From: Gemmatimonadaceae bacterium
GTDB taxonomy: Bacteria; Gemmatimonadota; Gemmatimonadetes; Gemmatimonadales; Gemmatimonadaceae
NCBI GenBank assembly: GCA_025450815.1
Contig: JANWLO010000014.1
Span: 1-51,462 of the forward strand
DNA length: 51,462 nucleotides
Direction: 5' to 3'
A program made the position numbers and the translations under genes. This document shows, one piece after another, positions 10,746 through 50,136 of the stretch; the first letter of the stretch is position 1; each line of letters begins with the position of its first letter. The notes under the pieces are model-generated. The model was not told the DNA's origin. It saw only the letters and a program-made list of their open reading frames with translations, and did not search any database.

Positions 10746-13700
10746 TTACGAATTCACCGCTCTCGGCGCGATCGAGGCTGCGACCCGGGCGCTCTCGCCA
10801 CCCGGAACCCACGACTTCCCCACGTCGCAGATCTTTCGCTTCCGGTAGCCACAGTGATCGCACTTGGGGCCGGCCGATGTCGCGTAGTCCGCCGCGGCAA
10901 TCTTCGCGACCGTGCTCTCCGACCATCTGCCGATGTCCTGGCGCTCTGCGTCGAATGACCAGCGATGCACGCGTGGGCCAGTGAGGAAGAGAAGCGCGCA
11001 GTCGGAAACGGTGCCGATTCCGGCGCGCGAGAGCGCCATCGCGTAGAGCTCCAGCTGCGGCGCGTAATACTCGGCGAGGTACTCGAAGCGCCCCGTACCG
11101 CTGAAATCATTCGACTTGTAGTCGACCACGGTCCAGGCACCATCCTGACCCTGAATCGCGAGGTCGATCACACCCGCCACCATCGCGCCGCCCACGCGCA
11201 TCGCGAATGGCCACTCGCGCTCGACTCGCCTCGCGCTCCGAACCGCATCTCCGATCTCGCCGCCAAGCACTGCGCCGAGCATGCGAGCGAACGCGGGCTG
11301 CGCCTTCGCGTCCTCGCCCGCGAGCACGCGCGCGATCTCCGCGCCCGTGTCACCCGCGTCGAAGCGAATGCGCTCGAGCAACGCGTGCACCCTGGTCCCC
11401 AGCTCCACCGGCGACGGCAGAGACTCGGCCGCGCCTCCAGCACGGATCGACGCGCGGTGCCTTGCGTGCTCACGAATGTCGAGTGACTGCGAGAATCGGT
11501 ACACCTGCGGGCATCGCCGATACTCGAGCAGCTCGGTGACCTTGAGCGAGAGCGGCGTGGCGACGATCGGCAACTGCGCCGCCTGGTGCGCCGCGTCGCC
11601 GAGCGGAGGCGACCACGTGGCGGCGAGCGGCTTCCCGTCACCGTACATCGTGCGCGCGACCACGGGCTCGCGCACGTACGTCACCTTCGAGCGGTAGCCC
11701 TCGCACTCGCGCTCGCCCTCGGATGCGAGTGCGTCCGCGGCGCTCGCCTGCAGAAACGCGAGCGGAGTGAACGACTTCCCATCCGGCGTCCACTCCTTGG
11801 CCTCTGCCACGCTCTCCTTCACGCACGCAGAGAGGATCAGTCGCACCCGCGCGCGCGTGAGCGCCACGTACAACAGCCTGCGGTCCTCGGCCTCGGCGCG
11901 CTCCTTCATCTCCTCGATGATCGGCGCGAGCGACATCGGACGCACTTCGTTCCCCGCTTCGTCGAGTGCGGCGCAAAGGAGCGCTCCGTGGCGGGGGCTG
12001 AACTGGAGCGCGTTGCCTCGCTTGCCGCTTTGCAGATTTGGCAGGCACACTACGGGCCACTCGAGTCCCTTTGCCTGATGGATGGTAGTGAGCACCACGA
12101 CATCGTCCGCGTTTCCGACAAGCGGCGCGGTGGACTCTTCGGTGAGCAGCTCGCGCGACCGCTGCAGCTCCGCGAACGCTTCGAGCGCCGACGCGCTTCC
12201 CATCTCGCGCAGCTGGCGGCGGAGCTTCGCGAGGTTGCCGAGCATCGCCGGTCCATCCTGATGCGCGGCGAGCGAGGCCTCGTAGACGAACGTGCGGATG
12301 GCATCGTCGAGCGCCTCGGCGGCCGGCAGCCCGCGCACGCGCGTGCGCAGCGACGCGAACGCCGTACGAAAGTCCGCCAGCGGCGCGTAGGTCTGCAACG
12401 CAATCCACATTGGGAGCGCATTGCCGGCGACGGGCGCGCGCAACCGCCAGAGGTCCGCGTCCGTCGCCCCCACGAATGGCGAGCGCAGAATGGCGGCCAG
12501 CGCGAGGTCGTCGAGCGGCTGCGCGATCGCGCGCAACATCATCACACAGTCGAGCACCTCGGCGCGTTCGTAGAAACCCTGCCCCGACGCGGTCACGTAG
12601 GGTATGCCGCGATCCGCCAGCGCGCGCTCGAAGTACGGGATGGCGGTGCGTGTGCGGAAAAGGATGGCTATGTGTTTGGGGCTGATCGTCGTCCACGTCA
12701 GCTCGCGCTTTTCCGGATCGCGCGCGCGAGCGTGATCGTGTAGAAGGCGCGCTAGCTCCTCTGCCACCGCGGCCGCCTCGCGAGGCCGCGCCGCGCTCAA
12801 GGGCTCGAACTTCCGCGGGTCGTCGCTGGATTGCTGCTGCACAGAGTAAATCGTCGACACGGCTGGTGCGTCGAGCCACTCACCCGCGTAGTCTGCCCGC
12901 GCATCGATCTCTGCGAAGTGCGCAGGAAGCAGCGCGTGACCGACGCCGTTGATCATCGCGACGATCTCCGGTCTACTTCGGAAGTTCTCCGCCAGCTGCA
13001 GCTGATCCGCATGCGGAAGCTTCGACATCGCGCCGAGAAATACGTCGGGGTTCGCGCCGCGAAACTCGTAGATCGCCTGCTTCGGATCGCCGACCATGAA
13101 AAGCGTGTTCGCAGGCGTACGCAGCGACTCGACGATCTGAAACTGCAACTCGTCAGTGTCCTGCGACTCGTCGAGCAGGATATGGCGGAAGCGCTCCGCG
13201 TACTCGGCGCGCACGGCCGGGTTGCCGGCGAGCAGTGCGGCCGCGCGCAGCTGGAGATCGTGAAAGTCGAGCGCGCCGATGGCACGTTTGTGCTCGGCGT
13301 ACGAACGATCGACCTCTGCCGCCGCAGAGTAGATCGCTCGCTTGAGTGGTAGCAGCTCGCGCTCGAGCGCCTCCTGAGCGGGCCAGTCGTTGAAGGTGGC
13401 TTTCGCATGGACTCGCTTGATCGCGTGAACGAGCTCCTTAACCGCCTCACGCTGACCTTCCTCGATCTGACCCGTGAATCTCGTCGCCGTCCAGCATTCG
13501 GCGGGCACGGCGCCGCACGAGTTTGAACGCAAACATGTTCGAACCGCGTCGAGATATAGGCGCGACTGATCGTACATCGCCTTCTTCGAGGTGAATTCCG
13601 CGTCGTCGAGCAGCGGCTCGACTGCGCGCATGTGCGCGAGCATCTCCCGCTCGGCCACGGCGACGGTCTCCCGCGCACGAGCCAGCGCGAGCGCCACCGT

Positions 13701-14255
13701 GCGATCGCCGTCGCCGATCATATCGGCTTCGCGCCGCGATGCTGATGAGCCTTCGCGCATCAGCCGCGCGACCTCGCGGACGAGGGTGAAAATGCTCCAT
13801 CCGCCCTCGAAGCTCTTGCCGAGCCGCTGCGCGAACTCGCGGAGATCGGTGCGCTCGTACATCGTGTGGAGCGCGTCCTCGATCCAGAGCTTCTGCTCGT
13901 ACTCCGTGATCACGGTGAAGGCGGGATCGATGCGCGCGTCAAAGGGGCGTTCGCGAAGGATGCGCTCCGCGAAGCCGTGGATCGTCGAGATGTACGCTGC
14001 CTCCGTTGCGCGACGGAGCGCGGTTTCTCCGGACGCCTCGAAGATCCGGATCGCGCGCTCCTTCATCTCCGCCGCGGCTCTGCGCGTGAAGGTGATCGCG
14101 AGGATCCGATCGGGCCCGACTTCCGGATCTCGTGCGATCGCGACGAAGCGATCGACGAGCACTGTCGTCTTCCCTGCGCCCGCGCCGGCGGCGACAGCGA
14201 GATCGCAGCTCAGGTCCGTCGATGCGCGACGCCGATCGCCGGCGAGCTCACTCAT
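10746..14255 (-). CDS. addA: AddA-like UvrD/REP superfamily-1 helicase with a C-terminal PD-(D/E)XK (RecB-type) nuclease
   Basis: Walker A AGAGAGKTTVLV, helicase motifs HILLDESQDT, FMVGDPKQAIYEFRGA and TIHQAKGLEWPVV, and a C-terminal nuclease block VIDLAI...VVDYKSN...QLELYAMAL. There is an 8-nt overlap with the upstream gene. Confidence 0.85.
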   Translation of the reverse strand: MSELAGDRRRASTDLSCDLAVAAGAGAGKTTVLVDRFVAIARDPEVGPDRILAITFTRRAAAEMKERAIRIFEASGETALRRATEAAYISTIHGFAERILRERPFDARIDPAFTVITEYEQKLWIEDALHTMYERTDLREFAQRLGKSFEGGWSIFTLVREVARLMREGSSASRREADMIGDGDRTVALALARARETVAVAEREMLAHMRAVEPLLDDAEFTSKKAMYDQSRLYLDAVRTCLRSNSCGAVPAECWTATRFTGQIEEGQREAVKELVHAIKRVHAKATFNDWPAQEALERELLPLKRAIYSAAAEVDRSYAEHKRAIGALDFHDLQLRAAALLAGNPAVRAEYAERFRHILLDESQDTDELQFQIVESLRTPANTLFMVGDPKQAIYEFRGANPDVFLGAMSKLPHADQLQLAENFRSRPEIVAMINGVGHALLPAHFAEIDARADYAGEWLDAPAVSTIYSVQQQSSDDPRKFEPLSAARPREAAAVAEELARLLHDHARARDPEKRELTWTTISPKHIAILFRTRTAIPYFERALADRGIPYVTASGQGFYERAEVLDCVMMLRAIAQPLDDLALAAILRSPFVGATDADLWRLRAPVAGNALPMWIALQTYAPLADFRTAFASLRTRVRGLPAAEALDDAIRTFVYEASLAAHQDGPAMLGNLAKLRRQLREMGSASALEAFAELQRSRELLTEESTAPLVGNADDVVVLTTIHQAKGLEWPVVCLPNLQSGKRGNALQFSPRHGALLCAALDEAGNEVRPMSLAPIIEEMKERAEAEDRRLLYVALTRARVRLILSACVKESVAEAKEWTPDGKSFTPLAFLQASAADALASEGERECEGYRSKVTYVREPVVARTMYGDGKPLAATWSPPLGDAAHQAAQLPIVATPLSLKVTELLEYRRCPQVYRFSQSLDIREHARHRASIRAGGAAESLPSPVELGTRVHALLERIRFDAGDTGAEIARVLAGEDAKAQPAFARMLGAVLGGEIGDAVRSARRVEREWPFAMRVGGAMVAGVIDLAIQGQDGAWTVVDYKSNDFSGTGRFEYLAEYYAPQLELYAMALSRAGIGTVSDCALLFLTGPRVHRWSFDAERQDIGRWSESTVAKIAAADYATSAGPKCDHCGYRKRKICDVGKSWVPGGESARVAASIAPRAVNS

Positions 14256-17196
14256 CGCTGTGCGCGGTTCCGGCGCCGAACGTTCCGATACGGCACACGG
14301 GTCGCAGGTCGCAGTAGCCGCAATCGTCCTTGCGCGGGAGCACCACGAGCTCGCCGTGCGCGAGGCGCGCTATCTCATTACGTAATGCGTGCTGGCGATC
14401 GTGCATGAAGCTGGCGAAGTCGTCGGGGTCGAGCTCCCGCACCCGGCCCGTCTCGCCAGCAGGAATGAACGCGCGGGCGAAGTCTCTGCGCACCACGCCG
14501 AATCGCGCTCCGCTGGCGATACCGAGGTAGATCGCGCCCACCGGCTCCACTCCGAAGCGCGGCAGCACTTCGCAGTAGATCGGCAGCTGGAAGTCGGCCA
14601 TGTCTTCCATTTCCTTGCCGTACCGGGCGCCCTTGCCGCTCTTATAGTCGACTGCGATGCCGTAGCGCTTGCCGTCGCGCTCGATGATGTCGACGCGGTC
14701 GATCGACCCGCGCAGCAGGCTGTAGCTCGGCGTCGTCCCGTGCGGAAGCTCGACCTCGAGCCCCTGCGCAAGTGAGGACGGATCGCGCCCCGCATCGTTC
14801 GTCCCGAACGAGAGCTCGAAATACTCGGCGCGGCTGCCCGAGGCCGCGAAGTGCATGCGCTCGTTCTCAATTAACACGCGCAGATTGTCGCGCAGTATTT
14901 GAAGCTCGAACGTCACCTGCACATCGCTTCGGAGCTCGCGCGGAATCTTGGCGGTCCACCACCGTTCGAGCGCCTCGTTGAGCGACGCGGGGTCGAATCC
15001 GCCCCGACCCATCTCGTTCAACACTGCGTGCGCGATCGTACCGATCAGTCGCGCGTCGAGCTGCGGGGGCACGAGCGGCTCCAGCCGAAGACGGCGCGTG
15101 CCGAAATGCTCGTAGAGGCAGTGTACCACCATGCGAGCCTGGCTCGCCGACATCGTGGCGGCGAGCGGTATGGTCTCCGCGAGAACGTCCGGCGGCAGTT
15201 GAATCTTCTGCGCCGCGTGCATCAAACCGTCGTAGCCCCGTCGCTCGCGATCCGTCATGAGCGTGAGCGTACTGCGCACCGCGTCGAGCTCGGCGCCCGC
15301 GTCGTTTGCGGAGCGGTGGCGCGCCACGAGCGTCGCTCGTGCGAGCCGCTCGCCGCGCGTCGCTGCGAGCGCGAGCGGCCAGGTGGTGTCGCCAACCGAT
15401 CGCTCCGACCGCTCCTTCTCGCCAATCCCGAGATCGTCCATGTAGAACGACGGGAGCAACGCGTCGCCATCTTCGCCCGTGGATGGCCACGACACGATGA
15501 GCGACTCGCGCGCCGCACGACGAATGCGCTCGCGGCGCTCGTACTCCTGCGCCGTGTGCTCGGCGACGAGCGGCAACAGCGCGCCGCCGTCGTTGAGGGC
15601 TTTCTTCACCCGCTCCGGAAGCAGCGGTGCCTCGCGCGTGCGGCGCGGGAAGACGCCCTCGCGCCAGCCCACCGCGAACACGTACCGTGCGCTCGGCAGC
15701 CCCGCGCCGGCCACCGTCAAGTGCACGCCATCGAACGCCTTCGCATCGGCGCGAACGGTTGAGCGCTCGAGCACCTCCTCGAGCTCGAGTAGCCACTGGC
15801 GCGCATCGATACGCTCGACGCGCAGCGTGCCAAGCGCGCGATTCAACTCCGCCGCAGCGACGGCGAGTGACTCCCATCCCTGCTGATCGAGTCTGAGCGT
15901 GTCGTCGCGACCCGCGGCGAGATTGTACCGTCGCCCGGCGGAGAGGAAGCCGTAGTCCAGCGCGAGCGCGGTGAGCGTCGTCGCGAGTTCCTGCGGCGAT
16001 CGCTCCCCTTCGAGCGACTCGGACAGTTTCGCGACTGCGTTCGAGAGCTCGATGAACTTTCGACTCGACTCGCCTCGAGCAAAGCGCCTCCAGCTACGCA
16101 TCGAGCCGACTCCGCGCAGGAGCATCGCGCGCGAGAGACGGTCATGATCGTCGAGCGAAAGTCCGACGTACGGCGTCGCCAGCAACGCGAGCCCGCGCTC
16201 GACAGTGTCCTCCTGCTCGTCGGCGAGCAGCCGAAAGCTCTCGATGAGCGCGCGCACCAGCGGGACACCAGCGGTTTCGCGACGCCGCGGACTCGCGACC
16301 GGGACGCCGAGACGGCTGCACGCTTCATGGAGGAGCGCGAGATAGCGGACGTTGGGCGCGACGCCGAGCACGTCGCCGGACGGAACCGGCTGCGCGCCGG
16401 ATTGGACGAGCGCCAGGATCTCGCGGGCGACCATCTCGATCTCATCCTGCGTGCCGACGCCGCCGATCGCGCGCATGGCTGGCGAAGGGAGCGCGGACGT
16501 CTCGTGCGAGGTAACAAAGCCGAATGGATCGAGCGTCGCCGTCCATGCGGGCGCGCCGCCATTTGCGTCCAGGGCGGCAACACCGATGTGGCACGACGAC
16601 GATGCGCCGATCACCACCATGTAGAAGTCGCGCGTGACACGATCCGGGAACGCCGGATCCTCGAGCACGAGCGAGAGAGAAGGAACGCCCGCGGCGACAA
16701 TTGCGTCGACTCGATCCGCGTCATCGAGGAATCCGAGCTCGCGGCGCCGGTCGTCGAAGCGTTGGTACGCGTCGGCGGCGTGCGCGTCGCCACCGGCCTC
16801 GGTGAATTGCGCCGGGGATACTCGGTTGAGGCGCAACGTGCGCACGAGATTCGCGACTGCGCGCACGGCGCCTGCAGGCGCGTCGCCGCGGTGGTCGTCG
16901 AACAGTGGCACGCTGGCGGCGCGTCCGGCCTCGAGGATGAGGCCCCGCTCGAGCGCCCCAGGCATCGCAATCGGAGTCACGAGTCCCGCGCGCGATTCCA
17001 CCAGCGAGAGAAAACGACCGCGCGAGCACACAGCGAGACCGAGCGAGACGCCGTGGCGATCGGCAAAGCTCGAGAGTGCGAGCCTGCGCGCAGATGCGGA
17101 TGGCGCAACGACGATGGAGCCCGCTACTGCGTGCTCGCGGCACCAGGCGCCGACGGCGGCGGGATCGCTGTGTACCATCAACTCGCGCGAGCCCAT
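14248..17196 (-). CDS. addB: AddB-like subunit (inactivated-helicase scaffold plus PD-(D/E)XK nuclease with a Cys cluster)
   Basis: No Walker A at the N-terminus. C-terminal nuclease GSIDRVDII...AVDYKSGKG...FQLPIYC and CGYCDLRPVC. Its position directly upstream of addA is the canonical addB-addA order. The ATG at 17194-17196 overlaps the upstream TGA (TGATG). Confidence 0.8.
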   Translation of the reverse strand: MGSRELMVHSDPAAVGAWCREHAVAGSIVVAPSASARRLALSSFADRHGVSLGLAVCSRGRFLSLVESRAGLVTPIAMPGALERGLILEAGRAASVPLFDDHRGDAPAGAVRAVANLVRTLRLNRVSPAQFTEAGGDAHAADAYQRFDDRRRELGFLDDADRVDAIVAAGVPSLSLVLEDPAFPDRVTRDFYMVVIGASSSCHIGVAALDANGGAPAWTATLDPFGFVTSHETSALPSPAMRAIGGVGTQDEIEMVAREILALVQSGAQPVPSGDVLGVAPNVRYLALLHEACSRLGVPVASPRRRETAGVPLVRALIESFRLLADEQEDTVERGLALLATPYVGLSLDDHDRLSRAMLLRGVGSMRSWRRFARGESSRKFIELSNAVAKLSESLEGERSPQELATTLTALALDYGFLSAGRRYNLAAGRDDTLRLDQQGWESLAVAAAELNRALGTLRVERIDARQWLLELEEVLERSTVRADAKAFDGVHLTVAGAGLPSARYVFAVGWREGVFPRRTREAPLLPERVKKALNDGGALLPLVAEHTAQEYERRERIRRAARESLIVSWPSTGEDGDALLPSFYMDDLGIGEKERSERSVGDTTWPLALAATRGERLARATLVARHRSANDAGAELDAVRSTLTLMTDRERRGYDGLMHAAQKIQLPPDVLAETIPLAATMSASQARMVVHCLYEHFGTRRLRLEPLVPPQLDARLIGTIAHAVLNEMGRGGFDPASLNEALERWWTAKIPRELRSDVQVTFELQILRDNLRVLIENERMHFAASGSRAEYFELSFGTNDAGRDPSSLAQGLEVELPHGTTPSYSLLRGSIDRVDIIERDGKRYGIAVDYKSGKGARYGKEMEDMADFQLPIYCEVLPRFGVEPVGAIYLGIASGARFGVVRRDFARAFIPAGETGRVRELDPDDFASFMHDRQHALRNEIARLAHGELVVLPRKDDCGYCDLRPVCRIGTFGAGTAHSDE

Positions 17197-18143
17197 CAGC
17201 CGCCGACGCACCGTTCGAGTTTCTCCGCGAGCTGGCGGCGAAGATCCTCGGGCTCCACAATCTCGGCGTCGGGACCATACTGGAGCACGTGGCGAAGCGC
17301 CCACGAGTCGTCGGCTACCTGATGCTGGATGGTAAGGCTGCCATCCGCATCGGGCTTCTTTCCCTCGCGCTCCGCCACCCAGCGCGCGATTCGCGGCGAG
17401 TAGCGCACGGTCATGCGGCGCGCGCCATCCGCGTGGAAGGCGCGGCCGGATTCGAGAGCGAGTGCGGCGACGCTGGCGTTCGGCTCGAACTCGTCGCCGA
17501 GCACTTCGACATTTTCTATTCTGTCGAGACGAAAGAAGCGCAGCCCGCCGTCCTCGCTCGTCGTCACGACGTACCACATCTGCTCGGCGAACGCGAGCGA
17601 GTACGGACAGACCACGCGCTCGGTCGTCTCGGTGGCGGCGCCCGCGCGATAGCTGAGCCGAACCTTGTGATGATCGCGAACGGCGGAGCGGAGTGCGGCG
17701 AGATGGGCGGACGAGCCGGCGCTCGCGAGATCGGCGTAGCGCGTGCCCTCGTGCGGATCGGAGGCGGCAATGCGGCTTACTGTTTGTCTCAGCCGCTCGA
17801 GTGCGCGATCGATGGGCGCCTGCTCCACGGGCGTTCTGTCGCGGCGCAGCAGCATGAGGCCGAGCTCGAGCGCGCAGAGCTCAGCCATCGTCAGGCGCAT
17901 GGGGCGAAGAAAGTGGTTTGCGGTAACGCTGACGCTGTGCTCGTCCACGAGGATTGAGACGCCGTCGACGAAACCGCCGGGCGCATCGAATCGTTCGGAG
18001 ATCGAGTGGAAGTCCGACATCAGGTTGTCGATGGACGTACCGGCCAGAATCGCGACGTCCTCGTGCGCGTGGTCCTCCCCATCCGCAAGATGGGGGATGA
18101 GGTTCAGCACGCGCCTCAGCTGCACGGCCGCGGTATCAGCCAT
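17196..18143 (-). CDS. WYL-domain transcriptional regulator (YafY family, PafC-like)
   Basis: N-terminal wHTH-like region, then a WYL-type beta domain: KVRLSYRAGAATETTERVVCPYSLAFAEQMWYVVTTSEDGGLRFFRLDRI. 315 aa. Confidence 0.75.
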   Translation of the reverse strand: MADTAAVQLRRVLNLIPHLADGEDHAHEDVAILAGTSIDNLMSDFHSISERFDAPGGFVDGVSILVDEHSVSVTANHFLRPMRLTMAELCALELGLMLLRRDRTPVEQAPIDRALERLRQTVSRIAASDPHEGTRYADLASAGSSAHLAALRSAVRDHHKVRLSYRAGAATETTERVVCPYSLAFAEQMWYVVTTSEDGGLRFFRLDRIENVEVLGDEFEPNASVAALALESGRAFHADGARRMTVRYSPRIARWVAEREGKKPDADGSLTIQHQVADDSWALRHVLQYGPDAEIVEPEDLRRQLAEKLERCVGG

Positions 18144-22642: not shown

Positions 22643-23752
22643 GTGCGCGCAATGACAATTGTTGGATCCGCGCTTGTCCCGTGCCTTTGCGTTGTTTCGT
22701 GTTCCCGGCACGATGCAGCGACGCAAGTCACGGCTGCTCCAACCACGACCGGAGCTGCGGTCATCTCGACAGCGCGCATTCCATTCGTCGTCGGATTGAC
22801 CGTCGATCTCGCGGTCGGTGAGCCCGTCGGTGACTATGAATCGCTTCATGTCATCGACTCGATCTCGCCGGAACGCTACCGGATAGTGAGATCGGGAGAA
22901 GTTCCCGACGGCTCGGGTGGCCTGATCGACGTGCAGGTGGTACGCACGGTGCGCACCGAAGATCAGCGCAGCGCGCGCGCGATGCGCCATTACTTCCATA
23001 CAGGAGATCCAGAAGAATTCGCCGGTACGACACCCGGTGTGTCGGCGGCGTTCGTGAACGATCTCCGCCGCACCGGCAAGAGCGAGCTGACCTTCCTCGA
23101 TGTGGGCGAAGTGTTCGGAGTGCCGCAGGTCCGTCGAACGCTGTCGGGGACGCTTGCGCGGGTAGAGCCGCAGCCCGTGCCCGTCCCGGTGCTGGTGAAT
23201 GGTCAGGTCGTGCAGTTACCCGCGATTCACGCGAAAGGAAATCTCTCGGATGGCACGACGACGGAAGATTTCGAGCTGTATGTGCTCGACGATTCCGACA
23301 ATCCCATCGTCCTGCGCAAGCGAGGCCCGGGCTTTTCAGCTTCCGTGGTCAAGATCGAATTTCCCGAGCCGCCAGGCGTGCGCGACTCGATCGAGACGAA
23401 ACTTGCCGCAAAGCAGCCCGTTGACGTGTATGGCGTGTACTTCTCATTCAATCGCGCCAACATCCGTGCGCAGTCAGAGCCTGTGCTGCGGGAGATTGCC
23501 GGCGTCCTGAAAAAGAATCCGAGTTGGCACCTTCGCATCGACGGTCACACCGACAACATCGGCGGTGACGCAGCCAACCTCGACCTGTCCCGCCGGCGCG
23601 CGGCGTCGGTGAAGGACGCACTCGTGCGACGCTTCGGCATCGATGCGAGCCGCTTGACCACCGGCGGTTACGGTGCCTCGAGTCCAAAAGACAGGAACGA
23701 CACGCCCGAAGGCCGGGCGCGCAATCGCCGCGTAGAGCTGAGGCGCGAATGA
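22643..23752 (+). CDS. OmpA-family lipoprotein (unknown N-terminal domain plus C-terminal OmpA-like peptidoglycan-binding domain)
   Basis: Lipobox LCVVSC. C-terminus VYFSFNRANIRAQSEPVLREIAGVLKKNPSWHLRIDGHTDNIGGDAANLDLSRRRAASV...ARNRRVEL. GTG start at 22643, with an ATG three codons later at 22652. Confidence 0.85.
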   Translation: MRAMTIVGSALVPCLCVVSCSRHDAATQVTAAPTTTGAAVISTARIPFVVGLTVDLAVGEPVGDYESLHVIDSISPERYRIVRSGEVPDGSGGLIDVQVVRTVRTEDQRSARAMRHYFHTGDPEEFAGTTPGVSAAFVNDLRRTGKSELTFLDVGEVFGVPQVRRTLSGTLARVEPQPVPVPVLVNGQVVQLPAIHAKGNLSDGTTTEDFELYVLDDSDNPIVLRKRGPGFSASVVKIEFPEPPGVRDSIETKLAAKQPVDVYGVYFSFNRANIRAQSEPVLREIAGVLKKNPSWHLRIDGHTDNIGGDAANLDLSRRRAASVKDALVRRFGIDASRLTTGGYGASSPKDRNDTPEGRARNRRVELRRE

Positions 23753-42020: not shown

Positions 42021-44600
42021 TCACAGGCTGAACCAGTACGAGGCCTTGATCAGGAAGGTGTTGTCCGGATGAATGGCGTAAAGGTCGCGCGCGCTGCCGT
42101 GCACGTCGAAGTTCCCGAACGCGGACCCATCGTTTTCAAAGCTCCGCCCCTGCGTCCATACCGCATAGATCGCCGAGCCCGCCCGGTATTCCCAGCGCAG
42201 CACGACGTTCGACCGAAACTCTGCGACGTCGAAGTTGTACTCGGACACGCCCGCCTCCGTGCCGTACGGGTGGAACCGCAGCGCGTAGTTTGCGTTGCGC
42301 CCGTCCGCGAGCTCGCGCCAGTCCGTGTACTTCCCGCTGCTCGCGAACGGCTGGGCATAGACCTGCAACGATAGCTTCGGGGTGAGCGTGTAGTCGACCC
42401 GCGCCGTGAGCGATACCGTGTTCTGATCGATGTGGCCGAAGGTGTAACTCGTGTCGCTGCCGTCGCTCGCGATCAGGTTGTCCACCCACTGATTGTTGTC
42501 CGAGTTGTGCTCGAAGTGCGGCGCGAGTGTGCCCGTGAAGCTTCTGGAAAGTCGAAACGCGAGCGATGGGTCCACGCCGAATCCCCACGACTGCGCTCCG
42601 CGCGCGCGCCAGGCGTAGGCGCCCAGCGACGGAAGGAGGCGCAGGCGAGGATCGCCGTCGATCTCGAGCGAAGCATCGGTGTAGGGCACGCGCCGCAGCA
42701 CGGGTCCGCCGCGCGATGCGCGATCGTCGTACACCGGAATGAAGCGGTGCCACATGACCGTGCCGTGTGCCCACCAGCTGTTCGTCAGCTCCGCGTCGGC
42801 GGTGACGCCGGCATCGTTGTCCGTGAGATCGGACGAGCTGATGCGCGCGGAGTTCCACTGATTGTGCTGCATGGCGTTCACGAACAGAGTGCGGTAGAAC
42901 TTCGTCGGCTTGACGAGATCGAGCCCGAGCCACGTGCTCTGTCGCTGCAATCCCGCCTCGGTGAGGAAGCCGATGTCATTTACCTCGAAGCCAGGCGAGT
43001 AGCGGTAGAATCCTTCGAAGAACTGCAGCGTGCCGCTCACCTTCTCGAACGCGAGGCGCTCCGCGTCGCCGCCGAGGGCAGTACGCGTAGTGTCGTAGCG
43101 CTCACCGTCGTCCGGCTTCTGGTAGTAGTGAGTGCTGTTCGCCTGCGTAATCGCGATCGCCTGCGGCGACCCCGAAACCTCGCTTTTCACCAGGTAGCCG
43201 GAAAGGCGATAGTCGCGGTCGAGAAAATCGCGCCGAAAATCAAGACCTCCCGAGTAGCCCGTGCGCCGCAGCGAGTCGGCGGCGAACGCATCGAGCTGCC
43301 GGCTTACACCTGTGAGCATGACGCCAATGTTCCCCTTGCCGTCGCTGATCTCCTGCTGCGCCCGGCCCACGAAATAGTTCGCACGCGGTTCGATCGTCTG
43401 CCCCAGCGAGCCCACTTCGCGTTGCGTCACGGCATCGAGCACACCAACCGATAGCCCGTGCTGTGTGCGGCCGGTGAGCTTGGCCGCACCGATGATCGAT
43501 GTGCTCGTGGGGAGCAGTGCGGTTGTGGACGTGTCCGTGATCTCGGGCGAGCGGCCGATGCGCCGCGAGTAGAACAAACCGCTGCACGCCGGGCCGTGAC
43601 ACTGGAGATCGAAGCGGAAAATCCCGGAGCCTTCGATGAAGAACGGGCGCTTCTCCTGATAGAACGTCTCGAACGCGGAGAGATTGAGCACCGCCGGATC
43701 CGCCTCGACCTGGCCGAAGTCGGGATTCACGGTTGCATCGAGCGTGAAGTTCGATGTCACTCCGTACTTGGCGTCCGCGCCAACGGTGATCTGCTGCGCG
43801 TGACCGTAAACGAGCGCCGGCGTGGTGGTCGTGATGTTCTTCGTCACGGCGTACGGCATCACCTCCAGATGGCGCGGTGTGCCGAGCGCCCCGATGCCCG
43901 TGAGCTCGCCGAATTGGGACGCGATTCCCGTGCGGTCTCGCAGGATGAGTGGCCAGCTGTCACGCTCGTTCAGCCGTGCTATGTCGCGGACGATGCTGAA
44001 CCCGAACACGTGCTCCTGGCCACGCGGAAAGCGCATCTGACTGAACGGCACGCGGTACTCGGCCGTCCACCCCTGCGCATCGATGGCAGTGGCCACGTCC
44101 CACACGCCGTCCCACGAGGGGTCCTCCTCGCTGTCGTTGAAGGTGTAGAAGTCGCTCTTGACGCCTTTCGGATTGACGGCGAGCTCGTAGCCGGTTCGCC
44201 GATCGTGGTACGAGTCGATCATGATCTTCACGCGATCGGACGGCGTGGCGACGTCGCGGCGGCTGAGGAATGCGCGGATGCTGTCAGGGTGCGGATCGAA
44301 GCAGCGGACGAACACGTAGAGGTAGCGATCGTCGTAGGCGACCTTCACGGTCGTGCGGAAGGACGGCGCCGCGCCGCTCGAGGGCGCGAACTGCTGGAAC
44401 TCGGTGATCGCGGGCGCACTGCGCCAGATCGCGTCGTCGTCCGTGCCGTCGAGCGTGCGCGGCGCCCCCGCGCGCACGGCGACAGCGTTACGCACCACCG
44501 GCGCGGAATCCGCGCGTGGGGGACCGGCGTTCGCCGCGAGCGACTGCGCGGCGAGCGCGATGGGAGCGAGCGATGCGACGAGCGACAGCGCGAGTGACAA
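42021..44600 (-). CDS. DUF5916 / CBM9-like outer-membrane-associated protein
   Basis: Signal-like N-terminus, a CBM9-like start (DGTDDDAIWRSAP...YDDRYLYVFVRC), then a long beta-rich region ending in ASYWFSL. The start is a TTG only 26 nt downstream of the preceding gene's stop. Confidence 0.65.
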   Translation of the reverse strand: MSLALSLVASLAPIALAAQSLAANAGPPRADSAPVVRNAVAVRAGAPRTLDGTDDDAIWRSAPAITEFQQFAPSSGAAPSFRTTVKVAYDDRYLYVFVRCFDPHPDSIRAFLSRRDVATPSDRVKIMIDSYHDRRTGYELAVNPKGVKSDFYTFNDSEEDPSWDGVWDVATAIDAQGWTAEYRVPFSQMRFPRGQEHVFGFSIVRDIARLNERDSWPLILRDRTGIASQFGELTGIGALGTPRHLEVMPYAVTKNITTTTPALVYGHAQQITVGADAKYGVTSNFTLDATVNPDFGQVEADPAVLNLSAFETFYQEKRPFFIEGSGIFRFDLQCHGPACSGLFYSRRIGRSPEITDTSTTALLPTSTSIIGAAKLTGRTQHGLSVGVLDAVTQREVGSLGQTIEPRANYFVGRAQQEISDGKGNIGVMLTGVSRQLDAFAADSLRRTGYSGGLDFRRDFLDRDYRLSGYLVKSEVSGSPQAIAITQANSTHYYQKPDDGERYDTTRTALGGDAERLAFEKVSGTLQFFEGFYRYSPGFEVNDIGFLTEAGLQRQSTWLGLDLVKPTKFYRTLFVNAMQHNQWNSARISSSDLTDNDAGVTADAELTNSWWAHGTVMWHRFIPVYDDRASRGGPVLRRVPYTDASLEIDGDPRLRLLPSLGAYAWRARGAQSWGFGVDPSLAFRLSRSFTGTLAPHFEHNSDNNQWVDNLIASDGSDTSYTFGHIDQNTVSLTARVDYTLTPKLSLQVYAQPFASSGKYTDWRELADGRNANYALRFHPYGTEAGVSEYNFDVAEFRSNVVLRWEYRAGSAIYAVWTQGRSFENDGSAFGNFDVHGSARDLYAIHPDNTFLIKASYWFSL

Positions 44601-44626: not shown

Positions 44627-47002
44627 CTACTTCGGCGGATCGGGGTCGGCGATCGTTGCGGTGATCTTGAGCAGGTAGTCGTCCCCGTCGCGCGAGTTCG
44701 TCTCGAATATGATGAAGCCGCTGTCCGATGCCTGGATGCAGTGCCGGGAGCGAAACTCGACGGTGGTAATCGCGCTCTTCTGCGTGTCCAGGCGGCGCTG
44801 CATGGCGCCCACGCTCAACACCCGCCCCTGATCGCTCGGCACCGTCTCCGCGCCGAATGCGCCGAACTCCACGAAACCCTTCGGCTGATTCGCCTTGTTG
44901 AACAACTCAATGGGGAACACCGACATCTCGCGCGCCACGGCGCACGCGATCTCGTTCTTCTTCGCGTCGTCGCTCTCCTGGAAGTCCACATCGTTATCCC
45001 ACACGACGATGCGCCGCTGCCCTATCAGATCGGACGCCGCCTGATTGAGGAGCCTGCGAAAATTGTCGTCATCCAGCTGCTCCTGCAGCTTCTTGAAGTT
45101 GCCGAGCAGCTGCGGAGGCACGACGTCGCCCAGCTTCTTCTTCAACAGCTCCTTGATCGTCTTCTCGGTTTCCTGATCGAGATTGATCACACCGCCGACA
45201 GCCAGTCGTCGATCCTTCGATTGGTCCGCCGTATCCACGGACCTCTTCTCCTCCAGGAACTGTCCGAAACCCAGGCGCCGCATCCCGCTGGCGGTGATGA
45301 ACACGCCCTTCTCCGGCGGAAGGAAGAGCACGATGCCATTGTCGTCGGGGAACTGCTGCAGCGAATCGCTCGGACGATCGAAGTCCTTTGACGGGCTGGT
45401 GGTCGGAACGAAGATCATTCGCCCGTTCACGCAGACGGTCATGCGAAGATTGTCCCGCTCCCTCAGAAACGTCAGCTTGGCGAGCTTTACCGTCACCTTC
45501 TTTACTCCAGTCGACGCGCCGGGTGCGAGCCAGCCCATCGACAGCGTGAAGCCGTAGCCGTCGAAGTTGTCCGGGATGTCCTTCATGGGGATGGTGATCT
45601 TCACCATTCGCGGCAGCGAGCCATCGGCCGGCTGCACGATCTGAATCACCGGCGACTGCTGGTGCCACCTGAGCGGCGAGTCGAGGCCGGCGCCGTACGG
45701 CGCGAACTCGATCTTCTGGAGGAGTCGCGGGCGAATCACGAGCGTGTTCAGCGCAAAGTCGCCTACCGCGCCAATGTCGTAGCTGATGTCGCCGGATGGC
45801 GCGGGCGGGAGATCCACGGCGAACTCGTAGTTCTCTTCGTTGAACGGGAGATGTTTCCCGTCGAAGTTCATGTAGCCGCCCTTGCGGCACGTGAAAAACG
45901 AGAAGCGCACTACCGGAATCGGCTCGTCCGCCTCCTCGAAGAGCTGCGCCTCGTAACGCGCAGTCGCGAACGCCTTCACTGGATTGATGAGCGTCGGATG
46001 ACGGTCGTCCTCATCCTTCACACCATCCTTCAACGCGTGCGTGCAATCGTAGACGTACCGGCCGGCGGCCCAGAACCAGTCACCGGACTGCGGCCAGAAC
46101 GGCCAGCTCTTGTCGTAGAAAATCGCCGGATGCGTGAGCACGCTGCTTCCGGCATCCGTGGGAGGCGTCGAGAAGGCGCCGACATCGAGGAGGCACTCGA
46201 GATGCGCCCTCGAGCCCTCGTAGATCTCGATCGCCCGCGTCCGGTTTTCCGATGACTGGTCCGCCTCCAGACTGTTCTCCTCCGCCGTTCTGGTGTTGAA
46301 CTTCCCGATCAGATGCTTGTACCCCACCATCGGATCGACGTGAAACGCCCAGTGATAGTGGCGGCTCCACTGCGTGTACGGACGGTGATGATGGGTCTGG
46401 TAGCTTCGCAACAATCGCCCCTGCACCTCCACTTCTGCCTCGCGCCCGTTGACGACGTTGTGCGCCTCCTCCGCATCGAACTGCGGGCCGTATGCGATGC
46501 GATTAACCGGCACCCAGCTCGGGATGAACTTCATGAAGCCGCCGAAGAGCCCGGACTCGAGCAGCTTCGAGAGAAAATCCTTGAGCTCTTGCTCGAAGTC
46601 CCGTCCCGTCTTGTTCTTGAGCTGACTCTTGAGCTGATCGAGCGCCACCTTCGCGCCGGGGATCGCGTTCGTGACCGCGAGCTCCAGCCCATCGATGAGC
46701 GCGCCGACGATGGCGTTGCCGAGGATGCTCGACTTGAAATCGCTCGAGTTGCGGCAGCCGCAGTCGCGTCCTTTACCGGACGGTCCGATCTTCGCGGGCG
46801 TCGGCCCGACGTCGACTTGTGCGTCGTAGCTGCGCGAGCCCAGTCGATGAAAGGGACGGAAGAGGGGATCGTAGCGTTTCTGATCCTTGCGGAACGGTCC
46901 GTTGTTCGCCTTGAGCAGGGGCGGCGGCGCGGCGACGGTCGAGGGCGCTGGTGCGGCGCTCGCACCCGAGCTGGAGCTCGGCTCCGCGGAGTCAGGAGCC
47001 AT
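44627..47002 (-). CDS. Large hypothetical protein (791 aa), no recognisable domain; candidate PAAR-associated cargo
   Basis: Long ORF with normal, Lys/Asp/Phe-rich composition and an 11-nt overlap with the upstream OmpA/PG-binding gene. The N-terminus is Ala/Pro/Ser-rich with no signal peptide. Distinctive patches: QTHHHRPYTQWSRHYHWAFHVDP and WPFWPQSGDWFWAAGRYVYDCTH. Confidence 0.7.
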   Translation of the reverse strand: MAPDSAEPSSSSGASAAPAPSTVAAPPPLLKANNGPFRKDQKRYDPLFRPFHRLGSRSYDAQVDVGPTPAKIGPSGKGRDCGCRNSSDFKSSILGNAIVGALIDGLELAVTNAIPGAKVALDQLKSQLKNKTGRDFEQELKDFLSKLLESGLFGGFMKFIPSWVPVNRIAYGPQFDAEEAHNVVNGREAEVEVQGRLLRSYQTHHHRPYTQWSRHYHWAFHVDPMVGYKHLIGKFNTRTAEENSLEADQSSENRTRAIEIYEGSRAHLECLLDVGAFSTPPTDAGSSVLTHPAIFYDKSWPFWPQSGDWFWAAGRYVYDCTHALKDGVKDEDDRHPTLINPVKAFATARYEAQLFEEADEPIPVVRFSFFTCRKGGYMNFDGKHLPFNEENYEFAVDLPPAPSGDISYDIGAVGDFALNTLVIRPRLLQKIEFAPYGAGLDSPLRWHQQSPVIQIVQPADGSLPRMVKITIPMKDIPDNFDGYGFTLSMGWLAPGASTGVKKVTVKLAKLTFLRERDNLRMTVCVNGRMIFVPTTSPSKDFDRPSDSLQQFPDDNGIVLFLPPEKGVFITASGMRRLGFGQFLEEKRSVDTADQSKDRRLAVGGVINLDQETEKTIKELLKKKLGDVVPPQLLGNFKKLQEQLDDDNFRRLLNQAASDLIGQRRIVVWDNDVDFQESDDAKKNEIACAVAREMSVFPIELFNKANQPKGFVEFGAFGAETVPSDQGRVLSVGAMQRRLDTQKSAITTVEFRSRHCIQASDSGFIIFETNSRDGDDYLLKITATIADPDPPK

Positions 47003-48722
47003 ACTCGGTCCTCAGCCGATCGATCGTGGGATCATCGAGCTGGCCGTTCACCGTCAGCTTCTTGTCCTTCTGGAAGCGCTTCACGAATTGTGCGAGCTGC
47101 ACATCGGTCCACTCGAATGGCTTCGCGATGCCATAGCCCAAATTGAACAGCCGCTGCCGCGCGCCAAAACCCTTCTCGTCGGGAGCGACGGCCAGCTCGC
47201 CGGCATCCGGCTCGAGCTCGTCGGGCGCGCCGCTGACATCGGCCTTTCGCACGATGCGCTGCAGGTTGCCTCCGAATATCGGAAACGCCACGAACGACTT
47301 CTCATCCTTGAACGGATCCGAGAGGTCGTCCGCCTTCTCGGCCGCTGGTGCCTCGATGTCGATGGACGCTATCGGCTTCCCGTCGCTCCCCTTCTTGTTC
47401 GGATCCACCGGTGGCAGCGAGCCGAGCATCGCGGCCGCGAGGTCGAGCTTGAGCGTCATGCTCGCGATGGGGACCCAGAGCGGTAGTCCGATGATCCCTT
47501 TTGACGACGTCGTGCCACGAATCACCGGAGCGGTGTCCTCGCCCGACATCACCGCGACATAGCGCACGTTTGCCAGCGGCTTGAGCGCGCCGCCGTCGCG
47601 GCCCTGCTGTCTCGAGCCGTCGATCTTGAGCTGCAGCACCCACATCTGCAGATCGCGCTCGCACGGCGAGTGCTGCGCGAGACCATGGTAAAATCGGCAC
47701 GCGAAGGTCTTCTCGATTTGCGCGATGCGCTCATCGTGGTTGCGCACCGCCTTGCCGAAGCGCCGCCGCTTGTCTTCGATCTGCTTCAGCCGGCGATCAT
47801 TGCCATCGGACCAGAAGTGCGCGACGCACTTCCCGATTCCCTCGGATGCGCGCGGACACGGCCACTTCTTCGGATCGATCTTCGTTCCCTTCTCGAAGAA
47901 ATAGATGATCGTTCGACGATTGTCGAAGTTCGCGTCGTGCCGGCGCGCCTTCCCGTTCTCCTTGTCCTTCGCGAAGTCATCGGTTTCGCTCTTCGCGAGC
48001 ACCAGCTGGAGGTTGAAGCTGCTGCACCCCTGAAACGCACCGTGCTTATCGCCTTCGCCCAGGAAATCGGCCTTCTCGAGTTTGTACGGCGTGCCTTGCG
48101 CATCGCTGCAGAGAAAATCCATGTACTCGGCGAACAGCTTCGTCCGCAGCGCCTTGTCGTTTCGCCCCGACGGCGCAAGTCCGCGCGAGCTCTGGTAGCG
48201 TTTGATCACGCCGGCGAGCTTCTCCTTCTTGTTCGCGTCGGCAGTGAACGCCAACGCTCCGAGCATTAACTCCACCGAGTCGTCGCCCCACACGTCACCG
48301 GCGGTTTTCGAGTGGTCCGAGAAGAGGCGCTCCCACGTCGGCACATCGCGAATCAGCATCCCGAACACCGATTCGGCCCGCCGCTCGCTCAGAAACTTGT
48401 TGTAGACGACATCGCCTTCCGGATCCGCGTGACCGAAGATCGACGCTGGCGATCCGGGGTGCCGATCGATGATCCCCTTGAGCGCCGTGAACGCGTCCTT
48501 TGCCTGCGGGGCGAGCACCGACGAGTCGAATGCGTAATGCGCGCCCGGAACATCCTTGCACGCGACAGTCACCAGTGAGCGGCGGATCGCGTTGAAGTTG
48601 CTCTTTTGCGCATCCGGGAAGGGCGCAGCGAGCACCGGCAGCGTGAGCTTGGGCGGATGATCGGCAGCGATGCCGCCGTCATCCTGCTCCACCATGTCCG
48701 GGATGAATATTCCCTCACCCAT
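46992..48722 (-). CDS. OmpA-like plus PG_binding_1 domain protein without a signal peptide (576 aa)
   Basis: OmpA_C-like block YAFDSSVLAPQAKDAFTALKGIIDRHPGSPASIFGHADPEGDVVYNKFLSERRAESV. C-terminal PG_binding_1-like RQRLFNLGYGIAKPFEWTDVQLAQFVKRFQKDKKLTVNGQLDDPT. The N-terminus MGEGIFIPDMVEQDDGG is acidic and not signal-like. Confidence 0.75.
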   Translation of the reverse strand: MGEGIFIPDMVEQDDGGIAADHPPKLTLPVLAAPFPDAQKSNFNAIRRSLVTVACKDVPGAHYAFDSSVLAPQAKDAFTALKGIIDRHPGSPASIFGHADPEGDVVYNKFLSERRAESVFGMLIRDVPTWERLFSDHSKTAGDVWGDDSVELMLGALAFTADANKKEKLAGVIKRYQSSRGLAPSGRNDKALRTKLFAEYMDFLCSDAQGTPYKLEKADFLGEGDKHGAFQGCSSFNLQLVLAKSETDDFAKDKENGKARRHDANFDNRRTIIYFFEKGTKIDPKKWPCPRASEGIGKCVAHFWSDGNDRRLKQIEDKRRRFGKAVRNHDERIAQIEKTFACRFYHGLAQHSPCERDLQMWVLQLKIDGSRQQGRDGGALKPLANVRYVAVMSGEDTAPVIRGTTSSKGIIGLPLWVPIASMTLKLDLAAAMLGSLPPVDPNKKGSDGKPIASIDIEAPAAEKADDLSDPFKDEKSFVAFPIFGGNLQRIVRKADVSGAPDELEPDAGELAVAPDEKGFGARQRLFNLGYGIAKPFEWTDVQLAQFVKRFQKDKKLTVNGQLDDPTIDRLRTEYGS

Positions 48723-48758: not shown

Positions 48759-49454
48759 TCACGGAAGATCGTGATCGCCGTGAATCTCGCCGAGCTTCTT
48801 TTTCGTTGCGTCCATTTTCGATCGGTTCTTCGGATCATCGATGTCGCCATTCTGCGGTGCGATGGCGTGATCGTGCTGGAACTCCTCGATCGCCCACCGC
48901 AGCTGCTCCCGATCGAGCTCGTTGAATCCGGCGAAGTAGCCGAGATTGTTGAGCCGAGCTTGTACGCCTTTGTCGGAACGCACGGGGTCGAGCAGCCCGA
49001 TGTGGATCACGAGCAGATCGTCGGCGACCTGGAGCTCCGCGATGTCGGCGTCGTCGAGAATCTCCTGCGACAGCTTCCCCTCATTGTCCGTGTCGAGCTC
49101 GAACTCATCCTCGAGCGACTCGCGACCGTTCTTGTCCTTCGCGTCCACTCGCAGCACGCAGCTCTCGCTCGCACGCGGCTTCCCGTCGATGTCCTGTAGC
49201 TGGATGTTGAGCAGCAGCGCCGGCGACTCCAACGCGAACACGTGCCGCTCGGCGTCGTTGCCGTGCGCGACGTTCTCGGGCAGATCGGGCACGAATACGA
49301 CATCTCCCGACTCGAGGATGTGCGGGTTGTGCCGAACCTTTCGGAGGTTGGCGTTCCCCGCATCGTTCCAGATGGTCAGGAAATTGGCGAAACCGTTGTC
49401 CGCGGCGATGCTGGAGAGGGTTTCCCCCGGCTCGACCGTGTGCTGATGGCTCAT
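48759..49454 (-). CDS. LysM plus PG_binding_1 domain protein without a signal peptide (231 aa)
   Basis: LysM: HTVEPGETLSSIAADNGFANFLTIWNDAGNANLRKVRHNPHILESGDVVFVP. C-terminal PG_binding_1-like VQARLNNLGYFAGFNELDREQLRWAIEEFQHDHAIAPQNGDIDDP. Confidence 0.8.
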   Translation of the reverse strand: MSHQHTVEPGETLSSIAADNGFANFLTIWNDAGNANLRKVRHNPHILESGDVVFVPDLPENVAHGNDAERHVFALESPALLLNIQLQDIDGKPRASESCVLRVDAKDKNGRESLEDEFELDTDNEGKLSQEILDDADIAELQVADDLLVIHIGLLDPVRSDKGVQARLNNLGYFAGFNELDREQLRWAIEEFQHDHAIAPQNGDIDDPKNRSKMDATKKKLGEIHGDHDLP

Positions 49455-49551
49455 CTGATGCGTCTTGGCTATCGGGGAGGTGGCGGGCCTCGCAGATTGT
49501 AGCCTTCCGGGAGGCGAGCGGCCAGATCAATAGCCCGAATTCGAGAGACGC

Positions 49552-50136
49552 ATGCCGCCAGCAGCGCGACTGAGCGACAACCATATCTGTCCGATGCAGA
49601 CGCCCGCGGTGGTGCCGATTCCGCACGTCGGCGGTCCAATCCTGGGACCCGGCGTGCCGAACGTGCTGATCGAGGGTATGCCGGCGGCCGTCGTCGGCGA
49701 CATGTGCATGTGCGTGGGTCCACCAGCAACCATCGTGAACGGTTCGACCGGCGTCCTCATCGCCGGCCGCGCCGCCGCGCGACTCGGTGACCCCACAGCG
49801 CACGGCGGCTCGATCGTCGGCCCTGGCGCGGCCACGGTGATCATCGGCGAGATGGGGAGCGGCAATACGAAGTCGGTGATCGGCACGCCGGCGTCTGGCG
49901 AGCGGGACGATGGCAGCACCGCGGAAGGCACCAAGTCGTCGTGGATCGAGATCCAGATGAACGACCGCGGCGGGTTCGGCCTGGCCAACACCAAGTTCCG
50001 CCTCGAAACCGCGGCGGGAAAAATCATCGAGGGCGTGACGAACGGAAACGGCCTCGCGCGCGTGGAAGGGTTAGACCCGGGCAACCACAAGATCAGCTTC
50101 CCCGATCTTCCTCCCGACGGTTGGAAAAAGAAGTAG
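49552..50136 (+). CDS. PAAR-domain spike-tip protein with a roughly 95-aa C-terminal beta-sandwich (transthyretin/CarboxypepD_reg-like) extension
   Basis: MPPAARLSDNHICPMQTP..PHVGGPILGPGVPNVLIEGMPAAVVGDMCMCVGPPATIVNGSTGVLIAGRAAARLGDPTAHGG is a canonical three-repeat PAAR pattern. The tail FRLETAAGKIIEGVTNGNGLARVEGLDPGNHKISF looks TTR-like. Confidence 0.85.
   Translation: MPPAARLSDNHICPMQTPAVVPIPHVGGPILGPGVPNVLIEGMPAAVVGDMCMCVGPPATIVNGSTGVLIAGRAAARLGDPTAHGGSIVGPGAATVIIGEMGSGNTKSVIGTPASGERDDGSTAEGTKSSWIEIQMNDRGGFGLANTKFRLETAAGKIIEGVTNGNGLARVEGLDPGNHKISFPDLPPDGWKKK

Follow-up and report, generated by a model that had tools for sequence, protein, structure and literature searches.

A 791-residue protein of an undescribed family, encoded with two peptidoglycan-binding partners beside a PAAR gene in a Gemmatimonadaceae bacterium, as candidate type VI secretion spike cargo

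The window analyzed here is the whole 51,462-nt stretch of contig JANWLO010000014.1 from a Gemmatimonadaceae bacterium (GenBank assembly GCA_025450815.1), and its subject is gene C, an open reading frame (ORF) encoding 791 residues, which we consider a candidate cargo of a type VI secretion system (T6SS) spike. Gene C ends a three-gene operon, A-B-C, that is divergent from the gene of a PAAR protein carrying a transthyretin-like (TTR) domain at its C-terminus, and the locus is laid out as follows.

44627..47002, minus strand: gene C, 791-aa protein of an undescribed family (ORF list, homologues, AlphaFold model)
46992..48722, minus strand: gene B, 576-aa partner with OmpA-like, TTR-like and C-terminal PG_binding_1 domains
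48759..49454, minus strand: gene A, 231-aa partner and first gene of the operon, with LysM and PG_binding_1 domains
49455..49551, no strand: divergent intergenic region of 97 nt between the A-B-C operon and the PAAR gene, presumed to hold both promoters
49552..50136, plus strand: PAAR-TTR spike-tip protein, 194 aa (PF05488, E=1.5e-21; PAAR motif at residues 24-89)
49924..50133, plus strand: TTR-like C-terminal domain of the PAAR protein, about 70 aa (jackhmmer, profile against the PDB, Pfam)

An earlier note on this DNA had described gene C as a long ORF with good coding character, and this description holds, although the ORF lies on the minus strand: its codon-position GC content is 0.61/0.42/0.84 (third-position GC, or GC3, 0.84), matching neighboring genes with clear homologues, while the antisense ORFs show the reversed pattern. 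The peptide patches quoted in that note are all present in the translation, and the 11-nt overlap it had claimed with the stop of the OmpA/peptidoglycan-binding gene is likewise there, the ATG at 47002 overlapping the TGA of gene B in a segment read as ATGGCTCCTGA; this overlap makes co-translation of C with the OmpA-type gene B plausible. A hydropathy scan and inspection of the N-terminus agree with the note that C has no signal peptide, and they reveal no hydrophobic segment, the highest Kyte-Doolittle value of any 19-mer being 1.58. The note had placed C in a PAAR-adjacent operon, and PAAR does adjoin it, but on the plus strand, divergent across 97 nt, and thus outside the operon of C. No sigma-70 consensus was found in the divergent region, and scanning the locus for promoters and terminators gave no useful information.

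Gene C returned zero matches in Pfam, NCBIfam, PADLOC and PHROGs, and family-library searches were likewise empty for 42 members of its clade, 10 longer or shorter relatives and 40 members of a clade of shorter proteins. Sequence searches of the PDB with C alone and with two profiles gave chance-level matches, none below E=0.1, and Foldseek with the full model of C found no match at E<=0.001 in the PDB (350,542 chains) or BFVD. There is a weak likeness to C2-type beta-sandwiches (probability 0.54-0.57 over 83-84 aligned columns, E=0.14-0.17), and matches to pilin-like beta-sandwiches are also weak. These results uphold the statement of the earlier note that C has no recognizable domain or family, and neither the family nor the fold searches returned a confident match to a housekeeping or structural family, which the note had named as the outcome that would tell against its reading. 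By these searches, both the family and the fold of C are undescribed.

The protein nonetheless belongs to a sizable superfamily. A word-indexed search retrieved 56 homologues with 95-100% length coverage and 28-97% identity, all annotated as hypothetical and, where named, from metagenome-assembled genomes (MAGs) of Gemmatimonadota, Myxococcales and Acidobacteriota, while a profile run exhaustively against 1.84 billion cluster representatives matched 368 of them at E<=1e-3, 139 of which also passed E<=1e-30. In view of these 56 full-length homologues and 368 cluster representatives, gene C is a real gene under selection. Many of the relatives in the profile search are short forms of 480-650 aa that have only the core (residues ~160-580) and the N-terminal arm in common with C. 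The GTDB species representatives yielded 18 loci, every one from a MAG of an uncultured host: Gemmatimonadota, one Methylomirabilis and two Chthonomonadales; as loci were retrieved by short peptide patterns, counts of distribution are lower bounds. Overall, homologues occur in Gemmatimonadota, Acidobacteriota, Methylomirabilis and Chthonomonadales, a patchy distribution confined to a few soil phyla. Searches of plasmids and phages by tblastn and a scan of viral contigs found no C homologue, an absence that we count in favor of the cargo reading. No precomputed Pfam domain is present on any relative listed, whether of the long or the short clade, and ten further relatives scanned directly had none; C has therefore never been seen fused to PAAR, Rhs or VgrG.

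To place these proteins in context, we annotated 27 loci of the long clade, the window included, with jackhmmer profiles seeded from window genes. C adjoins a homologue of B in all 26 loci with upstream sequence (L023 being the one without), and A is present wherever the contig reaches; a B-like gene likewise precedes P0100 and P0071, which are short and more distant relatives. The earlier note had proposed a comparison of homologue neighborhoods, and the one made here ties the family to secretion genes, with a spike-related gene (PAAR, VgrG or a small stand-alone TTR protein) beside the trio in 21 of the 27 loci. Five of the six remaining loci are on contigs that end early, and the sixth, L024, has full flanks.

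Six loci (L002-L006 and L015) lie inside T6SS clusters, with TssB/TssC, TssF/TssG, ClpV and VgrG around the trio. The gene order is TssF-TssG-ClpV-VgrG-PAAR-A-B-C in L003 (Acidobacteriota) and TssG-ClpV-VgrG-A-B-C in L015 (Methylomirabilis). In L002, L004 and L006 it is VWA-TssB-TssC-x-A-B-C, followed by DUF4123, PAAR and VgrG, with TssG (PF06996) after VgrG in L006, and in L005 VWA-A-B-C stands on one side with a PAAR-nuclease fusion, TssB, TssC and VgrG nearby. Genes for DUF4123 adaptors occur near the trio in L002, L004, L006, L016 and L019-L021. Several loci hold extra A/B modules whose third gene is unrelated to C; these third genes were tried as paralogues of C and rejected by hmmsearch and by hhalign, which gave a probability below 1%. 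Constant A and B with a variable third gene is the pattern of an adaptor with a variable effector.

Within Gemmatimonadaceae, the four genes form an island that occupies a single position in the chromosome, with acyl-CoA dehydrogenase and DUF5916 genes on either side (the window, L001 and L007-L014), and since this position is the same in all 10 loci, at 56-63% identity, the comparison indicates that the island has been inherited vertically over a long time. What lies downstream of C varies from locus to locus and includes genes for DUF5916, a TTR protein, DUF4123, a further A, a glycosidase and a peptidase M48. These neighborhoods also bear on the idea that the family of C is a housekeeping or structural one with no tie to secretion, for which the metabolic genes flanking C in the window could be cited; given that no housekeeping family matches C, that its distribution over a few soil phyla is patchy and that its linkage to spike genes is consistent, we regard this as extremely improbable.

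The TTR domain of the PAAR protein offers a link between the spike and the trio. The same ~70-aa domain, traced by jackhmmer, ends the VgrGs of L002, L003, L006 and L015, and it recurs in stand-alone proteins of 94-140 aa that adjoin A/B modules, including the PAAR-less islands L028 and L030. Pfam recognized CarboxypepD_reg in 11 of 19 domain members and prealbumin-like SpaA in 7 of 19. The best PDB match of the domain profile is to residues 782-815 of VgrG1 from enteroaggregative Escherichia coli (EAEC; 6sjl_A, E=1.8e-4), with weaker matches that include 6h56 (VgrG2b). The TTR domain of VgrG1 recruits the Tle1 cargo. Entry 6SJL is the VgrG1-Tle1 complex, and the published domain scheme puts the TTR domain last in VgrG1 (PMC10715212).

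The two partners are rich in domains that bind peptidoglycan. Gene A encodes a LysM near its N-terminus (residues 5-21, E=0.002, under the Pfam gathering score) and a PG_binding_1 toward its C-terminus (residues 164-203, E=2e-4, just under the gathering score). The AlphaFold model of B (mean predicted local distance difference test, pLDDT, 78.7) matches OmpA-like peptidoglycan-binding domains (PorE, YiaD, OmpA, TagL; probability ~1.0), a transthyretin/HIUase-like beta-sandwich (probability 0.7-0.9) and PG_binding_1 (SleB N-domain, gelatinase A; probability ~1.0), so that A and B together hold four peptidoglycan-binding domains. Neither a domain scan nor structure matching of its model detected an enzymatic domain or fold in B. 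The meso-diaminopimelate-binding motif GHADP..YNxxLSxRRA is invariant in B homologues, as are six Cys, namely C54 at the start of the OmpA-like domain and C232, C288, C298, C341 and C353 in a Cys-rich insertion. This insertion in the OmpA-like domain also has CPxx..C and C..H..H..C-like spacing, and together with the invariant Cys this suggests zinc sites, or disulfides formed only after export. No signal peptide or transmembrane segment was found in any of A, B, PAAR and C. Elsewhere in the window, a 369-aa ORF at 22643-23752 (plus strand) matches the OmpA-like part of the B profile (E=5.8e-25) and is probably an ordinary OmpA-family envelope protein.

For C itself, AlphaFold2 with an alignment of 43 sequences predicted, with confidence, a compact protein (mean pLDDT 82.5, predicted template modeling score, pTM, 0.85, 628 of 790 residues at or above 70), which divides into five parts.

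46898..47002, minus strand: residues 1-35, low-complexity Ala/Pro/Ser N-terminus, predicted disordered (pLDDT <50 for residues 1-21), not conserved
46733..46897, minus strand: residues 36-90, conserved N-terminal arm (pLDDT ~90; K41, R48, F50, R52, G75, C80-G-C82, R83)
46529..46729, minus strand: residues 92-158, three-helix insertion, only in the long (T6SS-linked) clade
45263..46525, minus strand: residues 160-580, beta-rich core common to the whole superfamily
44630..45262, minus strand: residues 581-791, clade-specific helical region, then terminal beta strands

In the model, the N-terminal arm probably packs on the core, and the most hydrophobic segment of the protein, ILGNAIVGALIDGLELAVT, lies inside the three-helix insertion. 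The core contains a His/Trp patch (202-224) and a Trp-rich WPFWPQ..GRYVYDCTH motif (299-321), and its conserved polar residues are E191, S199, E268, C269, D272, R314, D318, C319, H321, R348, E350, D396, N418 and N525; all of these but H321 are listed as invariant or nearly so in the C clade, together with seven Trp (W162, W211, W217, W299, W302, W310 and W490). Lys/Asp/Glu-rich helices lie within ~580-740 (pLDDT 59-70), and D774 and Y775 are invariant in the terminal strands. A papain-like or NlpC/P60 reading of the YDCTH motif was rejected, the Cys following a beta-strand in the model instead of standing at the start of a helix, with no fold match.

Comparison of the two clades adds a further layer. 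Both share E268, C269, D272, R314, D318, C319, H321, R348, E350 and N525, and the short sister clade has in addition the invariant residues D205, H212, D216, N218, E270, E337 and H339 (numbering of C), positions at which the C clade has His, Ser, His, Ala, Leu, Leu and Asn, respectively. The His/Asp/Glu/Cys set of the short clade is of the kind found at metal or acid-base catalytic sites and is partly remodeled in the C clade; because E270, E337, H339, H212, D205 and D216 are replaced there, the putative ancestral active site may have been remodeled or lost.

The His-rich patch, which the earlier note had offered as a possible metal site, is not a conserved feature: H203, H204, H205, H216 and H220 are 47-72% conserved in the C clade, where they are replaced by Arg, Asn, Asp or Gln, and the sister clade has Asp, His or Asn at these places. 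This bears directly on the proposal that C is a T6SS-secreted metal-binding or metal-scavenging protein with that patch as its metal site. Metal-scavenging T6SS proteins need no immunity gene, and the absence of such a gene here would be in keeping with this role, as would the His/Trp/Tyr composition of residues 202-224, the CxC motif and the two invariant Cys. We nevertheless find it very improbable: in the more distant members of the clade the His of the patch give way to Asn, Asp or Gln, the domain content of the obligate partners makes peptidoglycan and not metal their ligand, and the Pfam, NCBIfam, PDB and Foldseek searches found no similarity to known metallophore effectors.

Taken together, we put the probability that C is T6SS spike cargo at roughly 0.6. 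In the mechanism that we infer for secretion, complex formation, site of action and activity, the T6SS spike would carry a cargo module made up of A, B and C, of which C would be the large and probably active subunit, with the TTR domain at the C-terminus of PAAR, elsewhere on VgrG or stand-alone, serving as the docking site, and with A (LysM-PG_binding_1) and B (OmpA-like-TTR-like-PG_binding_1) bridging or accompanying C onto the spike. Because none of the four proteins has an export signal, peptidoglycan would be reached only after T6SS firing. Once in the recipient periplasm, the four peptidoglycan-binding domains of A and B would anchor the complex to the cell wall, where C would exert its effector activity, most likely on a cell-envelope glycan or peptidoglycan substrate. 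C is a candidate for the active subunit because no enzyme fold was detected in B, and by its alignment it alone among the components has a large surface of conserved polar and aromatic residues (Glu/Asp/Cys/His/Arg and the seven invariant Trp); this Trp-rich, acidic surface would fit a glycan or cell-envelope substrate. The view of C as an enzyme or toxin directed at the cell wall is a tentative proposal, which we would sooner expect to fail than to hold.

Several observations weigh against delivery of C by the spike, or against its being a classic toxin. L024, from Chthonomonadales, has A-B-C with only housekeeping neighbors and no spike gene within 7-10 kb; islands L028 (8918-14082) and L030 (6913-11986) hold a stand-alone 94-aa TTR-like protein and no PAAR; and no T6SS core gene lies within the 51-kb window. 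No conserved immunity-like small ORF was seen downstream of C in any locus examined, which is unusual for an antibacterial effector, and the lack of a polymorphic C-terminus, the unconserved His-rich patch, the stable vertical inheritance and the remodeled ancestral polar site all speak against a classic toxin. The label of polymorphic toxin given by the earlier note does not survive these comparisons, homologues being conserved over 95-100% of their length with no variable C-terminus, no PAAR, Rhs or VgrG fusion and no immunity-like gene downstream. Its broader label of effector-type cargo fares better, with the genomic context behind it and the missing immunity gene against it.

The first group of these observations would be accounted for if A-B-C worked independently of the T6SS, as a wall-associated complex exported by lysis, vesicles or an unrecognized exporter, with adjacency to PAAR being secondary. 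L024, L028 and L030, the latter two lacking both PAAR and VgrG, agree with this view, as do the absence of core genes from the window and the placement of P0190, a distant relative in locus L031, in a mobile-element region without A, B or a spike gene. It is normal in T6SS for orphan vgrG/PAAR islands to stand well away from the core cluster; L028 and L030 still encode a protein with the T6SS-type TTR domain, a spike or TTR gene lies beside the trio in 21 of the 27 loci, and six loci are inside T6SS clusters from four phyla. Independence from the T6SS thus seems to us improbable.

P0190 (544 aa) is the most distant relative that we examined; in L031 (9058-11635), a region rich in mobile-element and defence genes (integrases, transposase, TIR, PIN/PhdYeFM), it follows a 280-aa protein that has no similarity to A, B or PAAR. 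L028 and L030 are on one contig of 5.9 Mb (ERZ25039539 contig_5124), and their orders are TTR-A-B-C and C-A-B with a convergent TTR gene, respectively.

The second group of observations would sit more easily with C as a non-toxic scaffold, adaptor or spike-decorating subunit, in which case A-B-C would grip peptidoglycan and tether the spike in the wall of prey or kin, or A and B would themselves act as non-catalytic toxins of the Tox-OmpA type, with C loading or stabilizing them. OmpA domains have been proposed as non-catalytic toxins (PMC3482391), no conserved immunity gene stands next to the module, the island has stayed at a fixed site in the 10 Gemmatimonadaceae loci, unlike fast-swapping toxins, and polar residues that the sister clade keeps invariant have disappeared from the C clade. 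C is, on the other hand, the largest and most strongly conserved member of the trio, with many invariant Glu, Asp, Cys, Arg and Trp; unrelated proteins at the third position of other modules fit variable payloads better, and several loci already have dedicated DUF4123 adaptors. A scaffold role therefore appears unlikely, although it deserves more weight than independence from the T6SS.

A bolder extension of the cargo reading would make A-B-C a tripartite, immunity-less T6SS payload in which A and B, with four peptidoglycan-binding domains between them, clamp a C of novel fold onto the recipient wall. In that case C would either found a new enzyme fold that acts on the cell envelope or serve as a non-enzymatic harpoon or tether, keeping hold of prey or kin once the spike has fired, and the superfamily, with its 368 cluster representatives, would represent a new hydrolase fold dependent on metal or acid, its active site remodeled in the T6SS-linked clade. 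This combination is speculative, and we consider it doubtful as a whole.

Spike cargo of the kind proposed for C has precedents in known systems. As in EAEC VgrG1-Tle1 (6SJL; profile match to VgrG1 782-815), a TTR-like domain ends a spike protein that adjoins cargo genes. Unlike in that system, the putative docking domain here is on PAAR, elsewhere on VgrG or stand-alone, and the cargo would be three proteins instead of one phospholipase, with C having no similarity to Tle1/DUF2235.

A second precedent comes from Liu et al. 2023 (PMC10673891), where a stand-alone LysM protein in a vgrG locus was shown experimentally to be required for VgrG-effector binding, and where PG_binding_1 is listed among the domains with the same genetic configuration as LysM. 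As in those loci, a small LysM (plus PG_binding_1) protein is encoded here between the spike gene and a large downstream protein. The published LysM loci come from Proteobacteria and encode Lyz-like, NlpD or NlpC/P60 enzymes as effectors, with an immunity gene in the example that was tested, whereas the present loci have a second obligate partner, B, an effector candidate unmatched in fold and no immunity gene. The Tox-OmpA domains of Zhang et al. 2012 (PMC3482391) are likewise OmpA-like/peptidoglycan-binding domains without export signals of their own, delivered in that case by contractile injection machinery; they are C-terminal in polymorphic toxins delivered by the Photorhabdus virulence cassette (PVC), whereas here a separate protein, B, has the OmpA-like domain at its N-terminal end, and C lacks any peptidoglycan-binding domain of its own.

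Action in the recipient periplasm or cell wall and delivery by the spike, both presumed for C, would be shared with the peptidoglycan-targeting T6SS effectors (Tae, Tge, VgrG3 and others), which are paired with Tai/Tgi immunity proteins. Unlike these, C has no sequence or fold similarity to amidases, muramidases or NlpC/P60 enzymes and no adjacent immunity gene.

The loading logic of a spike TTR domain, a LysM/PG_binding_1 partner and a nearby DUF4123 is thus already known, and it is C itself that is new; a literature search found no description of an obligate OmpA-like/TTR/PG_binding_1 partner of 560-620 aa or of a consistent lack of an immunity gene. To our knowledge, T6SS biology has been worked out almost entirely in Proteobacteria and Bacteroidota. 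The hosts of the module belong to abundant, barely cultured soil phyla (Gemmatimonadota, Acidobacteriota, NC10 and Armatimonadota), and in them known loading logic is joined to a payload without a known fold, a second obligate peptidoglycan-binding partner and no immunity gene. Should C be an enzyme, it would represent a new fold targeting the cell envelope, and should it not be, the module would point to a non-toxic, wall-anchoring use of the T6SS spike. Either way, the family merits a name and a structure, and it offers a concrete complex of three or four proteins to test.

Some of the related loci have features of their own. Two members of the C superfamily (736 and 620 aa) stand in tandem after a B-like gene in L025 (1-5484), a duplication of the payload gene within the module. 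In L005 (11249-13426, minus strand), a PAAR-TTR protein is fused to an Exo_endo_phos (endonuclease/exonuclease/phosphatase, or EEP, nuclease/phosphatase) domain and stands at the head of a separate module, followed by a 133-aa protein, A, B and a protein of 487 aa, which places an evolved PAAR toxin beside a cargo-type module. The T6SS clusters of L002, L004 and L006 (for example L002 2683-22015) diverge strongly: PF17541 is the sole match of TssC, Pfam has none for the genes standing where Hcp, TssE and TssF would be expected, and a VWA protein and a Ser/Thr kinase flank them. With no TssJ, TssL or TssM seen within the 10-kb flanks, these Gemmatimonadota-type clusters may constitute an undescribed T6SS subtype.

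The rest of the window is housekeeping in character, with genes for an acyl-CoA dehydrogenase, a HIBADH-like dehydrogenase, a cysteine desulfurase-like protein, an AddAB-like pair, a hybrid histidine kinase and a secreted DUF5916/CBM9 protein. The last of these (42021-44600, minus strand) has a TTG start and the signal peptide LSLALSLVASLAPIALAAQ, begins 26 nt past the stop of C and may be co-transcribed with it; having a signal peptide and being syntenic only within Gemmatimonadaceae, it was set aside as a partner of C and treated as a flanking gene. It appears frameshifted in L001. The AddA/AddB-like pair (10746-17577, minus strand), unrelated to C, consists of a 1169-aa UvrD-type helicase with a PD-(D/E)XK nuclease domain and a 1109-aa PD-(D/E)XK protein.

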